Notes under the pieces: model-generated
The model's database searches: none
Seen by the model: only the letters and a program-made list of their open reading frames with translations
What the model was told of the DNA's origin: nothing
In this document: positions 22,573 to 56,790 of the stretch, piece by piece
Position numbering within the stretch: position 1 is the first letter of the stretch
Layout of the letters: the number at the start of each line of letters is the position of its first letter
Source: Escherichia phage JM17
Sequence record: PP400779
DNA length: 64,000 bases
Reading direction: 5' to 3' (one strand)
Program-made: the position numbers and the translations under genes

Positions 22573-24015
22573 GTGGTAGAAATTATTTTGTCTCATCTCG
22601 TATATGACCAGGCTTATTTTTCTAAGGTCTGGCCTTATATGGATTCTGAGTATTTTGAGCGTGGACCGGCAAAAAATGTCTTTAAAATTATAAAGAGCCA
22701 TGTTAACGAATATAATGCAATGCCATCTATCAATGCGTTAAAGGTGGCTTTAGATAACAGTTCTTTAACTGAAGCCGAATATAAAGGAACTTCAGACCTA
22801 ATTGAAAAATTGGCTGATACTCCTGAAGACCATGAATGGTTGGTTAAAGAAACTGAGAAATATGTCCAGCAAAAAGCGATGTATAATGCTACGTCCAAAA
22901 TCATTGAGATTCAGTCTAATGCTGAACTACCTCCAGAACAACGTAACAAGAAAATGCCTGACGTAGGAGCTATTCCTGATATTATGCGTCAAGCACTTTC
23001 AATTTCGTTCGATAGTTATGTTGGACATGACTGGATGGAAGACTACGAAGCACGCTGGCTTTCTTATCTAAATAAAGCACGTAAGGTCCCGTTCAAATTA
23101 AACATTTTGAATAAAATAACCAAAGGCGGTGCAGAAACAGGTACACTAAACGTTTTAATGGCTGGTGTTAACGTCGGTAAATCTTTAGGCCTTTGTTCAC
23201 TTGCTGCAGATTATCTTCAAACAGGTCATAACGTTCTTTATATTTCTATGGAAATGGCTGAAGAAGTTTGCGCTAAGCGTATAGATGCAAACATGCTTGA
23301 CGTATCACTTGATGATATCGATGATGGTAACGTATCTTATGCTGAATATAAAGCCAAGATGGAAAAATGGCGTTCAAAAACAACATTAGGACGTTTAGTA
23401 GTTAAACAGTATCCTACTGGTGGAGCTAATGCTAATACATTTCGTGCATTGCTTAATGAGTTAAAACTTAAGAAGAACTTTGTGCCATCTGTAATCATGG
23501 TTGATTACTTAGGTATTTGTGGGTCTTGTCGTATCAGAGTTTACACTGAAAATAGCTACACATTAGTTAAAGCTATCGCAGAAGAACTTCGTGCATTAGC
23601 AGTAGAATCTGAAACAGTTCTATGGACTGCAGCTCAAGTGGGACGTGCAGCATGGGATGCTTCAGACATGAACATGAGTGATATCGCAGAATCAGCAGGT
23701 TTACCAGCAACGGCAGATTTCATGTTGGCTGTAATTGAAACCGAAGAACTTGCACAAGCTGAACAACAACTTATCAAACAAATCAAATCACGATACGGCG
23801 ATAAGAATAAGTGGAATAAATTCCTGATGGGTGTACGTAAAGGCAATCAGAAATGGGTTGAGATTGAGCAAGAAGGCATGAACACACCTAACACAGTAAA
23901 TGAAAACGCAGGTGCTCAGATGCGTCAGGCAGAGGTGAATCGTACGGAACGCGTAGGTAAAGCCAAAGCAACACGTGCTGACCTAGATAGCTTAGCCAAT
24001 GAGTTAAAATTTTAA
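22573..24015 (+). CDS. 41: replicative DNA helicase gp41 (DnaB-like)
   Basis: 480 aa, GTG start; MVEIILSHL..., Walker A GVNVGKSLG; close to remembered T4 gp41. Confidence 0.9.
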   Translation: MVEIILSHLVYDQAYFSKVWPYMDSEYFERGPAKNVFKIIKSHVNEYNAMPSINALKVALDNSSLTEAEYKGTSDLIEKLADTPEDHEWLVKETEKYVQQKAMYNATSKIIEIQSNAELPPEQRNKKMPDVGAIPDIMRQALSISFDSYVGHDWMEDYEARWLSYLNKARKVPFKLNILNKITKGGAETGTLNVLMAGVNVGKSLGLCSLAADYLQTGHNVLYISMEMAEEVCAKRIDANMLDVSLDDIDDGNVSYAEYKAKMEKWRSKTTLGRLVVKQYPTGGANANTFRALLNELKLKKNFVPSVIMVDYLGICGSCRIRVYTENSYTLVKAIAEELRALAVESETVLWTAAQVGRAAWDASDMNMSDIAESAGLPATADFMLAVIETEELAQAEQQLIKQIKSRYGDKNKWNKFLMGVRKGNQKWVEIEQEGMNTPNTVNENAGAQMRQAEVNRTERVGKAKATRADLDSLANELKF

Positions 24016-24020
24016 TAAAA

Positions 24021-24041
24021 AGGAGACTTCGGTCTCCTTTC
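24021..24041 (+). terminator. UUCG-tetraloop hairpin after gene 41
   Basis: aggagac-ttcg-gtctcct then ttcgggg (weak U-tract). Confidence 0.45.
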
Positions 24042-24103: not shown

Positions 24104-24478
24104 ATGAATATGTCTCAAGCAATTTTTACTGCAATCACCGAAAACACAACTGTTGAAGTAGTTTCTCCGCTGGCAACCTACGTTATTCTTGCTCCTAAAA
24201 CTATTGTATCTCGTATGGAAAACATGGGCAAACGTATCGTACAAATTGTTGGAGCTGGAAATCAAAAACTTGATTATCTACGAACCATCAAAGCTTATGA
24301 ACATTTCCAACTCGAAAAAGGTTCTCCTATCCAGGTAGAACTCGTAAATGGTGATATCGTTCGAGCAATGTTCCATCATTTCTATGCATTGAATGACCCA
24401 TCTAAAGCGGTTCGTTTAATTGCATATGACGCAAACCAAAACGAAATCAACGCAGATGTATCTAAATTACGTTTTTAA
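24104..24478 (+). CDS. hypothetical protein (124 aa)
   Basis: ORF with aagaggaaaacattATG RBS context downstream of early promoter. Confidence 0.4.
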   Translation: MNMSQAIFTAITENTTVEVVSPLATYVILAPKTIVSRMENMGKRIVQIVGAGNQKLDYLRTIKAYEHFQLEKGSPIQVELVNGDIVRAMFHHFYALNDPSKAVRLIAYDANQNEINADVSKLRF

Positions 24479-52423: not shown

Positions 52424-52975
52424 TTACTTAAAGATATTTATAATCGCTTTGATAATAGATTTGTTTTCAAGGTCAGGGAATTTAGGGAATTCGCCGCCAA
52501 GATGTTCATGTTTTTCTAAAAGGGCAAAGAATTTTTTGAGCTCTTTAAATTTTCGTTTTTCTTCTCTATTAGCAACCTCTGCGTCAATAAGAGAACTTAA
52601 AACACTGAATAATTTATAGAGTTCATGAATTTTCTTATCACGTTGAACTACGCGTTTATATGCTTCATCTTCCTTCCACCCGTCGTCGGTCCAAATGTCA
52701 AATTCACCAGGTTCTTCTGTAGTAACATTTTGAAGAGCACCTGGAGTGTCAATAACAATTTTTTGCTTATCATAAGTCCATACTGTTTTTCCACGATGGT
52801 CTTCAACATATACCCATTCTTTTTCGCGTTCATCAAATACAACAGCATAGCCTTCTTTAGGGTCTAAAGGTTTTTTAGATGTCGAGTGAGCCGGAAGACC
52901 GAGGCCTTTAACCGGTTTGTAATTTTCTTCTTTGTAAAATTCTTTAGTGTCAAAATAATAATGATATATTTTCAT
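52424..52975 (-). CDS. 38: gp38 (T4-type tail-fibre assembly protein)
   Basis: 183 aa, same length as T4 gp38; follows gene 37; split-SD hairpin in its initiation region. Confidence 0.7.
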   Translation of the reverse strand: MKIYHYYFDTKEFYKEENYKPVKGLGLPAHSTSKKPLDPKEGYAVVFDEREKEWVYVEDHRGKTVWTYDKQKIVIDTPGALQNVTTEEPGEFDIWTDDGWKEDEAYKRVVQRDKKIHELYKLFSVLSSLIDAEVANREEKRKFKELKKFFALLEKHEHLGGEFPKFPDLENKSIIKAIINIFK

Positions 52976-53005
52976 ATTTAGAAGGGGCCGAAGCCCCTCT
53001 CCTTA
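52976..53005 (-). promoter_or_regulatory. translation initiation region of gene 38 with UUCG hairpin between SD and AUG
   Basis: minus strand reads taaggaga-ggggc-ttcg-gcccc-ttctaaat-ATG; SD about 23 nt from AUG unless hairpin forms. Confidence 0.55.
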
Positions 53006-56000
53006 TGCTAAACGAACGATATAGTTAAAAGCAATGTTTTTAACCGTGTTTTCTGTATTACCTGTACTATTTACAGTGATAGTATGACCATGCGAGCCAA
53101 TTGCTACCGAGTGAGTATGAGCACCAATACCTACAGTATGTGTATGGGCACCAATACCTACAGTATGCGCGTGGTTACCCGTAGAGCTAGTAGTACCAGA
53201 CCAAGAGTGTGTATGGTTACCTTCTGTAGATGACTTTGCAATATATTGGCTTGAACCAGGCACGACACCGTTGCTTAGGCCAAAACCAACAACCTGGTTT
53301 CCACTAATTAGAGTAGACCCATTAGGAAATATCCCTGTTGGTTGATTATTAGGACCCCTTGGACCGGTTTGTGAGTGCTGGTGGTTACCTGCTGCACCAG
53401 TAGTACCGCTTACTGTATGGTTATGGTTACCTGTTGTATTGCTAGTCTTCGTACCATAATCAAAGCTTGAAGAGGTTTTAGTACCATAATCAAAACTTGA
53501 TGTGTTTTTAGTACCCAAATCTGTGCTTGATGCACTTGCACTATGGCTATGTGACTTAACACCATCTGCTTCTGTACTTAATACAGCACGCCCAGATGGT
53601 TTACCCTTGATAGTTTGACCACGCATATCCGGAATAGTACCAGTAGGATATGCAACAGCCAATTTTGGGTATGCAGACTTATCAAAAGTCTGTCCTTCCA
53701 TAATAGCGTAACCTTCAGGAGGTGTATCAGTAGGCCAAGGAATCGGAGCACCAATTGGGTAACTCGACACAATATCTGTCTTAAGGTTATTTATTGTGGT
53801 ATTCAAGTTAGCAAAATTACCAGTGCCGCCAGTGATGTTACCATCAGTACCGAATTGAGCATTACCAACTTTTAATGGTTTTGAAAAAAGAACATCGTCG
53901 GTTCTAAATGCAACCCCATGACCTAATGCATTACTATATAAGTTAAGTTCATCTGAACTACCACTCCCATTACCAACGAACCATTTAACCGTATTAGCTT
54001 TTTTACCCTGAATATAAACAGGGTTGGTCGATGAAACCGAGTTAATAATAAGCGCGGCGTTATTAGCGTTAATTGTGATAGCTTGCCCTGATGTTGTTCT
54101 ACTAGTTTCTACTTTAAATCTTCCACCGCCGATATCAACATCATGATCCATGGAAACTTTACCATCACTTAATGTAATATAGAACGGACGTAAATTAGAA
54201 ATACCACCTGATTCACCAGCATTCTGTGGAGTTGGAATAATATAAAGCTTATCTTCAGAACGACGGAAAATAGCCCCGTATTCAGCATTCCAAATTCTTA
54301 ATGCATCAGCTGTTCCGCCGATTTTAACTTGCCCGGTAATAGAAGAACCACCTTGGACAAACAAACCGTTAGACATAGTAACATTGCCACCAAAAGAACC
54401 TGTACCGGAGGCACTTATATTACCAAGGCCTATGATATGGCCTGTTTCGACAGTTCCGTTAAATTTAAAGTTAACCGGACCTACTGTTTCACCAGAAGCC
54501 GGGTTGGTACGTTGAGCATAAAAATAATAACCATGCCCGTCAGCTAATTCAAAAACTGTTTCACGAGTACGATCGCCAGATGCGTTAAATGAATTACCCC
54601 ACGCTTTAATAGATACATAACTTTTATTCTGACCTGCGCGAGTACCACCAGCCCACAGTATAGTTTTAGTGCCATCTGTTGTTGTAGGAGCGTCAAGTTG
54701 AATACCGTCGGGTCTAGCACCAGTAAGAACTAATCCATTATCAAATTTAATTCTTTGTATTGAAGATACTGTTCCGTCGGCATAAAACTGTACATTATTA
54801 GAACCAGTTACCAGTTTCAAAATACCCGGGTTAACTTCCATACCTTCTTGTGTATTAATGTTGGTTTGGCCTTTACCGCGGAAATAGTGGGACATTTTCC
54901 CGCCTGAGTTATAGCCAATATGCGTCTGGCCGTCTCCAGCAGTGTTTTCATCAGCTTGTGTTTGAACCGATAAAAACGCGGCGTTGGTTCCAGGCATAAT
55001 CCATGTTGTACCTTGGTCCTCGGAACGACCAAAAATCGCTTTACGGGTACTACGGAAACTATAAGGAGTAATAGATGCGACAGAATTCCCTGAACCAACT
55101 AAATCATAAACACCGGTTTTTTTGTATGATAGCCCCGTCCCGTTATCGCCTAGAGCTAAATAAACACCGAATCCTAAAGCGGCACCATTACCATAGTCGC
55201 TTGACGGGTATCCTGCAGTCACGGTCCCGATGGCTATGCTATTGCGGACGATCATTCGGCCGTCATTACGAATACCATATAATTTAAATGATGGTGTATT
55301 ACCAGTCCACCAAGAAACTTCATCAGCCTGGTCTGTTTGTGCAGTAACAATTTCATGATACATTGTACCACCGGATTTAGCTCGCACTTTACGAAGATAG
55401 TTTACACCATTCGTTTCACCGGTTCCAGGATAAACATAGTTAACCAAAGATTGTGAATCATATTGTCCAAATGATTTAGAATCATGATTAATTAAATTAA
55501 CACTAATAGTTGGTGTACTAATAGAAGTTAAAGCAGTTAATTTGCGTGCCTGGAAGATACCGCCATCAGTAGAAATGAAATGAAATTCTGAATTTTGAGC
55601 TTCCGCAGCGGTTCCTTGACGAACACGCATTGTAATTACGCCTTCATTTTCAGACTGCGGGTTTGAATATAAAACGCCACGTTCTGAGCCATTTGTATTT
55701 TCAAACCAAAGATGGGCCTTTGCAGTATCATTTATTGCTCTTGTATAAAATGAACCGGATGTTGATCTGAATACTGTAGCAGAAACAATATTACTTGCCG
55801 TAATAGTACCACTTGTAGAAAAATTTCCAAAGTTGTTTATTGGTCCATTGACGCGTAAAGTTCCATCAATAGTTACATTTCCATCAATTTGACCGCCTTT
55901 AGCAATACCTAGATCAATGATATTTCCTGTATCATCTTTAGTAAAAATTGTTCTATCTTTTAAGTTTATAGCCAATTCACCTTCGGCTAATACTGAAGCA

Positions 56001-56059
56001 GCAGGACGTGCACCTGCGGTTTTGCTTCTTTTAAATTGTATTTGTTTTAAAGTAGCCAT
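53003..56059 (-). CDS. 37: distal long tail fibre subunit gp37 (receptor-binding)
   Basis: 1018 aa; Gly/Ser/Thr-rich beta composition; C-terminal His-box repeats (GAHTHT); synteny 34-35-36-37-38. Confidence 0.85.
53093..53174 (-). repeat. tandem 27-nt repeats encoding His-box units near the gp37 C-terminus
   Basis: units gcaccaatacctacagtatgtgtatgg / gcaccaatacctacagtatgcgcgtgg plus a degenerate copy; encode VGIGAHTHT-type repeats. Confidence 0.7.
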
Positions 56060-56757: not shown

Positions 56758-56765
56758 TATTTATA
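56758..56765 (-). promoter_or_regulatory. late promoter (TATAAATA) for gene 36
   Basis: plus-strand tatttata = minus TATAAATA about 25 nt upstream of gene 36 ATG. Confidence 0.6.
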
Positions 56766-56772
56766 CAAAAAT

Positions 56773-56790
56773 GGGAGACCGAAGTCTCCC
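56773..56790 (-). terminator. UUCG hairpin terminator after gene 35
   Basis: minus strand gggagac-ttcg-gtctccc followed by auuuuug. Confidence 0.55.

Follow-up and report, generated by a model that had tools for sequence, protein, structure and literature searches.

A putative hairpin-bridged ribosome-binding site of the T4 gene 38 type at the tail fibre junction of Escherichia phage JM17

How can ribosomes initiate on a gene whose only Shine-Dalgarno (SD) sequence lies 23 nt upstream of its start codon, with a stable hairpin in between? The question is raised by the junction of the homologues of T4 genes 37 and 38 in Escherichia phage JM17 (sequence record PP400779), of which we analysed a stretch of 64,000 nucleotides, hereafter the window. 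All positions refer to the window, and the features of the junction lie on its minus strand. A sequence-only reading of this DNA had proposed that folding of the hairpin brings SD and AUG to a normal spacing, and had named the arrangement as a known feature of T4 gene 38. Our analysis confirmed the observation as correct and supported the interpretation: the best explanation, and probably the right one, is a split ribosome-binding site (RBS) of the T4 gene 38 type that is bridged by a hairpin.

Layout and predicted folding of the junction

The gene 37 homologue (53003–56059; ORF list), which matched phrog_1699 in PHROGs (E 8e-261), encodes a long tail fibre distal subunit of 1018 amino acids whose C-terminus reads NYIVRLA, with GCA-TAA as the last codons. 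It is followed by the gene 38 homologue (52424–52975; phrog_105, E 4e-50 in PHROGs), which encodes a Tfa-like tail fibre assembly chaperone of 183 amino acids and opens with the codons AUG AAA AUA; its AUG (52973–52975; ORF list) is identical to the start annotated in T4 and its relatives. The next ORF after gene 38 is the holin gene t (52414–51755; PHROGs), and the order 36-37-38-t in the window is the T4 order.

The UAA stop codon of gene 37 (53003–53005) provides the first three bases of the 7-nt SD UAAGGAG (52999–53005; UAAGGAGA), which can form seven contiguous base pairs with the 3′ end of 16S rRNA, a duplex worth −9.0 kcal/mol. The minus-strand sequence thereby bore out that the stop codon overlaps a strong SD, and the gap to the gene 38 AUG, which had been put at about 23 nt, measured 23 nt from GGAG. 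The hairpin said to occupy this gap was found exactly in place (52984–52997), with GGGGC as the 5′ arm (52997–52993), UUCG as the loop of the C(UUCG)G tetraloop (52992–52989) and GCCCC as the 3′ arm (52988–52984). Between the hairpin and the start codon lies a spacer rich in pyrimidines and A (UUCUAAAU; 52976–52983), which holds no alternative SD: in GCCCCUUCUAAAU we found no 4-nt SD core within 18 nt of the gene 38 AUG. This sets the gene apart within its own genome. Of the 94 greedy gene starts examined across the window, 60 are preceded by a 4-nt SD core no more than 18 nt away, at a spacing of 4–12 nt and mostly 5–8 nt; only at gene 38 does a strong core (AGGAG) stand 23 nt off, with none nearer.

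We then considered how firmly the hairpin is expected to fold. The 14-nt hairpin by itself had a predicted stability of −9.6 kcal/mol, and its five core pairs reached ensemble probabilities of 0.987–0.997 in a 171-nt context. Its UUCG loop, C-G closing pair and Watson–Crick stem are those of the extra-stable C(UUCG)G tetraloop. Replacement of the 3′ arm GCCCC by CAAAA was predicted to do away with the hairpin. The segment from the stop codon to the AUG folded at −13.8 kcal/mol (z −2.5), and 4 of 200 shuffled sequences were equally stable. The fold signal is local, since the 81-nt region as a whole was unexceptional (z −1.29). Beneath the core hairpin, the minimum free energy structures include a weak and heterogeneous lower-stem extension (52980–53002; ensemble probabilities 0.2–0.66), which partially overlaps the SD: the A52998–U52983 pair has a probability of 0.66, and alternative G-C, A-U and G-U pairs join GGAGA to UUCU. 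This lower stem would be worth about 4–6 kcal/mol (−13.8 to −16.2 versus −9.6 for the hairpin), and through it the SD and the AUG are predicted to be partly paired in naked RNA (unpaired probabilities 0.09–0.59), which would also fit a coupling of gene 38 to the translation of gene 37.

Hairpins of this type are common in the genome, and one in an intergenic gap is therefore not rare per se. Counted on both strands, CTTCGG occurs 32 times in the window, about twice the expected 16.8 ± 4.2, and none of 100 shuffles reached 32. There are 12 C(UUCG)G hairpins of at least 4 bp in the 64 kb, most of them at or just past gene ends and on the transcribed strand, and most of those other than the gene 38 hairpin have a T-run behind them or an SD downstream. 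No UUCG hairpin of the window other than that of gene 38 stands between an SD and the AUG it serves, and it is this placement, together with the conservation across relatives described below, that goes beyond chance. A search of a 601-nt stretch with the Rfam 15 covariance models assigned no family; its two chance matches (E 3.6 and 8.3) both lay outside the element.

One other hairpin was considered as a second split site. On the plus strand, AAAGGAGAC-UUCG-GUCUCCUUU (24019–24040) carries an SD-like AGGAG in its 5′ arm and lies just past an ORF stop at 24015. We rejected it and regard it as a gene-end hairpin, because the next ORF, at 24104, carries its own normally spaced SD (AAGAGGAAAACATT-ATG).

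A motif search located, on the minus strand, TATAAATA, the late promoter motif of the T4 type, ahead of gene 36 (56758–56765) and again within the last codons at the 3′ end of gene 38 (52435–52442), 21 nt upstream of the start of holin t, and detected no further exact TATAAATA between 56758–56765 and gene 38. Through the second of these motifs, holin t has a late promoter of its own, which lies inside gene 38. A candidate late promoter at the junction, TCTAAATA, which differs from TATAAATA by one mismatch, was rejected, as it would start transcription inside gene 38. At 56758–56790, after gene 35, a terminator-like UUCG hairpin (GGGAGAC-UUCG-GUCUCCC, then AUUUUUGU) immediately precedes the TATAAATA upstream of gene 36, and the two make up a compact terminator-promoter pair.

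Conservation of the split site and spread of the hairpin

The 101-nt junction is 100% identical to the T4 records OZ209023 and KP162263, and 68 records match it at 99% or more; the identical stretch covers the stop codon, the SD, the hairpin, the spacer and the first codons of T4 gene 38. The backbone of the window is that of a Mosigvirus, as the 24 kb around the site are 95–96% identical to APCEc01, mar005P1 and GADS24. The gp38 of the window is 98.9% identical to that of phage F2 and about 96% identical to those of Mosigvirus phages, and only 69% identical to T4 gp38. A binned comparison placed the T4-identical patch (100%) at about 53060–52901, with either flank (52901–53140 examined) closer to Mosigvirus phage G2469 (95–100%), whose junction differs and carries the variant hairpin AGGGAC/GUCCCU. 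The junction has evidently been exchanged through recombination as a cassette, which looks small, with breakpoints that would fall within the 3′ end of gene 37 and the first ~100 nt of gene 38.

To compare such junctions, we gathered them from 16 GenBank phages and six IMG/VR or metagenome contigs, which gave ten distinct T4-type variants from the genera Tequatrovirus, Mosigvirus, Dhakavirus and Gaprivervirus. The GenBank phages supplied most of the diversity; protein and DNA pattern scans of IMG/VR contributed two loci, and a metagenome scan eight, four of them T4-type. The survey as a whole sampled about 25 of roughly 2000 Straboviridae records. In all ten variants, UAAGGAG was invariant and the stop codon overlapped the SD. 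The stem took the forms GGGGC/GCCCC, (A)GGGAC/GUCCC(U) and GGGCC/GGCCC. The variation within the T4-type set is concentrated in one covarying pair, the other four core pairs being invariant: the pair 52994–52987 is G-C in seven sequences, A-U in five and C-G in one, with both sides changed each time. In a 13-sequence alignment of the ten T4-type variants plus Citrobacter phage Moon and Yersinia phage X1, 98.7% of cells were paired, and the covariation score of 0.201 compared with 0.067 for shuffled alignments, was reached by none of 500 shuffles and exceeded that of slid controls. The loops of the relatives read UUCG, UUCU or UUAU; the identity of the tetraloop is not strictly required, since some relatives have the latter two.

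The spacing proved more telling than the stem. Across the ten T4-type variants, the linear distance from GGAG to AUG ranged from 23 to 27 nt, and the folded distance, computed by removing the stem outside GGAG, was 7–9 nt in every one of them and 7 nt in JM17, as would be expected if, as the sequence-only reading had it, folding restores a normal spacing. The folded distance matches the 5–8 nt typical of the genome's own genes. This variable linear but constant folded spacing is the best new support for the bridging model. In the window, genes 37 and 38 share a reading frame, with TAA and nine sense codons (GEGLRPLLN) between them. Five of the ten variants are out of frame; the shared frame is therefore probably a coincidence, and we rejected a gp37-gp38 read-through fusion on the same ground.

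Salmonella phage Lv5cm (MZ150757, L032 440–560) showed an unusual arrangement, a 77-nt tandem duplication that runs from the hairpin through codon 18 of gene 38. The first copy, with SD, hairpin and AUG, opens an ORF of only 18 codons, whose TAG overlaps the second hairpin, and the annotated start of gene 38 follows this second hairpin, which has no SD. Either this duplication is a natural layout for reinitiation, or it arose as an artefact of assembly.

We also looked for the hairpin beyond the T4-type lineage. Nine other Straboviridae genera have a GC-rich tetraloop hairpin directly after the distal fibre gene, with UUCG as the loop in seven of the nine, and the hairpin was thus found in 13 genera, including the four with a T4-type junction. 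Only the T4-type lineage was seen to have its SD on the 5′ side of the hairpin. In all eight of the nine other genera in which a gene follows, and likewise in T2, a second Tequatrovirus case, the SD comes after the hairpin; in these downstream-SD phages, which include some with unrelated adhesin-type gp38, the SD stands 5–8 nt before the AUG. The T2 junction reads UAA-AAGAGGGC-UUCG-GCCCUCU-AAGGA-UUUUUA-AUG. The hairpin GGGGC-UUCG-GCCCC recurs in Klebsiella phage Clarke_MM3 (flanked by AU pairs and followed by CUUU, AAGGAG, AUAUC and AUG), in Erwinia phage Gravdalen and Kosakonia phage 305 (followed by UU, AAGGA, 6 nt and AUG), in Citrobacter phage Moon (followed by UCU, GAGG, AAACU and AUG) and in Klebsiella phage Roth23, where AAAGG lies 8 nt ahead of the AUG. 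Other stems are found in Proteus phage ABTNLPp2 (GGGCC-UUCU-GGCCC-U-GGAGG-UUAUU-AUG) and Aeromonas phage avDM1 (GGAGCCC-UUCA-GGGCUCC-UUU-GGAG-AAAUU-AUG). The downstream-SD loci, from T2 and seven other genera, are L033 651–680 (T2), L034 909–944, L035 269–299, L036 944–975, L027 369–400 (Moon), L039 961–1006, L040 688–716 and L038 140–175.

In Citrobacter phage Ursula (PQ589834, L031 690–730), a cassette that is nearly identical to the Moon 37/38 junction, GGGGCTTCGGCCCC-TCTGAGGAAAAT-ATG, sits between the unrelated hypothetical genes phrog_1582 and phrog_8920, which suggests that hairpin plus SD may serve as a reusable intercistronic module.

The hairpin was also encountered outside T4-like phages. 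Yersinia phage vB_Yen_X1 (MN617773, L006 330–380) has a 50 kb genome that is not T4-like, and one of its tail-protein genes ends in VRLA and the stop codon. This homologous fibre-gene end is followed by the identical GGGGCUUCGGCCCC / GGGGCTTCGGCCCC, by no SD and by the T-run TTTATTTTTTT, and the next gene is about 100 nt away. Read from its letters, the hairpin with its T-run is a classical terminator, and the C-terminus of the fibre and the hairpin seem to move together between unrelated phages. Acinetobacter phage PhT2 similarly has a hairpin and a T-run after its fibre gene, with no closely following gene. When 14 junction types were aligned on their loops, six of the seven stem pairs were changed on both sides; this alignment, which leans towards structure because it was built around hairpins, places a hairpin in every lineage, yet it is no independent proof of selection. 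The hairpin appears to be older and more widely spread than the split arrangement. Since its conservation extends far beyond that arrangement, bridging is probably neither its sole nor its original function.

Proposed route of initiation and competing explanations

The split-site explanation that we favour would work as follows. The late polycistronic message of genes 36, 37 and 38 most likely begins at the TATAAATA that precedes gene 36 (56765–56758), and gene 38 would be read from an internal site on it, since no late promoter motif lies between the 56758 region and the gene. The sole SD, UAAGGAG, would be too far from the AUG at 23 nt for normal initiation. With the C(UUCG)G hairpin predicted to be folded essentially always, 14–16 nt would be taken out of the path and some 7 nt would remain between SD and AUG, or 5 nt if the weak lower stem forms too. 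A 30S subunit binding to UAAGGAG could displace the weak lower-stem pairs (about 4–6 kcal/mol versus −9.0 kcal/mol for the SD duplex) and would then keep the SD paired with its anti-SD while the AUG, located 7 nt past the stem base, sits in the P site and the hairpin protrudes. The two ends of an A-form helix lie some 2 nm from each other, and the effective spacing would therefore be somewhat above the nucleotide count. That efficient initiation needs the folding would follow by analogy with the literature, where the proposal concerned gene 38 and the mutational tests gene 25.

Bridging may, however, be secondary. The hairpin needs no bridging role to be conserved, because eight other genera keep it with a downstream SD at normal spacing. 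It may accordingly be an old element that has been conserved where the distal fibre gene has its 3′ end, the T4 split site having arisen by a lineage-specific move of the SD to its 5′ side; its main job would then be another one, such as protection of the gene 37 mRNA, attenuation of read-through or gating of gene 38 to ribosomes arriving from gene 37. We take this to be a serious possibility, while leaning against it.

The main rival explanation, which strikes us as rather unlikely, leaves bridging tolerated but not selected. The hairpin would be mainly a 3′ element of the fibre gene, acting as an mRNA stabiliser, a processing barrier or an attenuator that sets the gp37:gp38 ratio, and the SD would merely have landed 5′ of it in the T4-type lineage; most translation of gene 38 would come from ribosomes that end at the UAA, are retained there by the SD and reinitiate 27 nt further on. 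The distribution described above is consistent with this, in that the hairpin stands after the fibre stop with a downstream SD in all eight phages named (T2, Clarke_MM3, Gravdalen, Kosakonia 305, Moon, Roth23, ABTNLPp2 and avDM1) and with a T-run, and without a gene close behind it, in Yersinia X1 and Acinetobacter PhT2, and in that six of seven stem pairs show double changes among the 14 junction types of the hairpin-anchored alignment. Reinitiation in particular would agree with the stop-SD overlap in every T4-type variant, with the partial pairing of SD and AUG in naked RNA and with the classical coupling of the homologous stf and tfa genes of phage lambda through an ATAATG overlap; in Lv5cm, the real start of gene 38 retains the hairpin, without an SD, after the 18-codon ORF, although that duplication may be an assembly artefact. 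However, the distance from hairpin to AUG is constrained in T4-type junctions so that the folded spacing stays at 7–9 nt, which a pure stabiliser would not require, and the SD is a perfect and invariant 7-mer. The bridging explanation and this one are not mutually exclusive.

We consider it very improbable that the hairpin is a partial rho-independent terminator between genes 37 and 38. Its stem-loop is GC-rich, with five G-C pairs and a tetraloop; in MK327934, the equivalent type-B hairpin, with UUUUUAUAAU (UUUUU) behind it, bears the annotation of a putative transcriptional terminator (−11.8); and GGGGCUUCGGCCCC followed by TTTATTTTTTT closes the fibre gene of Yersinia phage X1. In JM17, however, the tail UUCUAAAU is no U-tract, and a consensus scan (at least 5 T in 8) made no call here, while the same scan did call the UUCG hairpin after gene 35. 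Full termination would moreover silence an essential assembly gene, as no late promoter separates it from the hairpin.

That a chance UUCG hairpin fell into the gap, with gene 38 translated SD-less via the A/U-rich spacer, is scarcely credible: 12 such hairpins, mostly at gene ends, and a regional z-score of just −1.29 would allow for it, but the compensatory changes in the hairpin, the invariant SD and the constant folded spacing across variants speak against it, and both PMC3014915 and PMC7297116 treat the hairpin as functional. Cleavage by RegB at GGAG was also considered and rejected, given that a review describes every late transcript as resistant and secondary structure as protective.

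Relation to known systems

The T4 precedent named in the sequence-only reading proved correct. According to Uzan and Miller (PMC3014915), an intervening structure cuts the distance from SD to AUG from 22 to 5 nt at T4 gene 38, and from 27 to 11 nt at T4 gene 25. The count of 5 nt fits our predicted lower stem, in which G-C and A-U pairs between GGAGA and UUCU leave UAAAU unpaired. PMC7297116 credits Gold 1988 with the gene 38 case, as a proposal, and Nivinskas et al. 1999 with that of gene 25; it words the help of the hairpins to initiation as 'it was suggested' and terms the sites noncontiguous or split. For gene 25, the evidence reported comprises hairpin-destabilising mutations that lower translation and compensatory ones that bring it back, lacZ fusions and DMS probing (Nivinskas et al. 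1999; Malys and Nivinskas 2009; PMC3014915). For gene 38, no mutational, lacZ-fusion or DMS-probing data were found in the literature examined.

Judged by sequence, the element in JM17 is the already known split RBS of the T4 gene 38 type, identical to the original, and since it has been described since the 1980s, its rediscovery adds little. What we did not find in the literature examined are the conservation of the hairpin across the junctions, the lineage-specific relocation of the SD and the folded spacing of 7–9 nt. The element is of wider interest as a clean natural case of an mRNA hairpin inside an RBS that is thought to aid initiation rather than to block it, and it is useful for RBS design; for annotation, it means that gene finders expecting an SD within ~15 nt miss the RBS of gene 38.

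The initiation region of T4 gene 38 shares with that of JM17 the same sequence over at least 101 nt and the same gene order, 36-37-38-t. It differs in its setting: the JM17 genome is Mosigvirus-like, the body of its gp38 is 69% identical, and the T4-identical stretch is a short patch. The split translation initiation region of T4 gene 25, at the 26-25 junction, likewise has an SD that is too distant (27 nt) and a hairpin that brings it to 11 nt, and its split arrangement is likewise limited to close T-even phages, but it is another locus with an unrelated sequence, which is absent from the window.

In E. coli thrS and rpmE (Sacerdot et al. 1998; PMC7297116), a stable stem-loop is likewise tolerated within the RBS and arranges the elements contacted by the 30S subunit. 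There, however, the hairpin stands between a single-stranded enhancer upstream and an SD at normal spacing, and it is a protein operator, whereas that of JM17 parts the SD from the AUG and has no known regulator.

The tetraloop and closing pair of the gene 38 hairpin are those of the C(UUCG)G hairpins of T4 intercistronic regions, with which the enrichment of CTTCGG in the window also fits. Such hairpins were reportedly described in T4 intercistronic regions by Tuerk et al. (1988, PNAS 85:1364).

Finally, the stf-tfa pair of phage lambda is homologous to genes 37 and 38, in that a fibre gene ending in NYIVRLA and its stop codon is followed by a gene for a Tfa-like chaperone. In lambda, stop and start codons overlap as ATAATG, the arrangement of classical coupling, with the SD inside stf and without a hairpin; compared with this junction, the T4-type junction carries 27 extra nucleotides.
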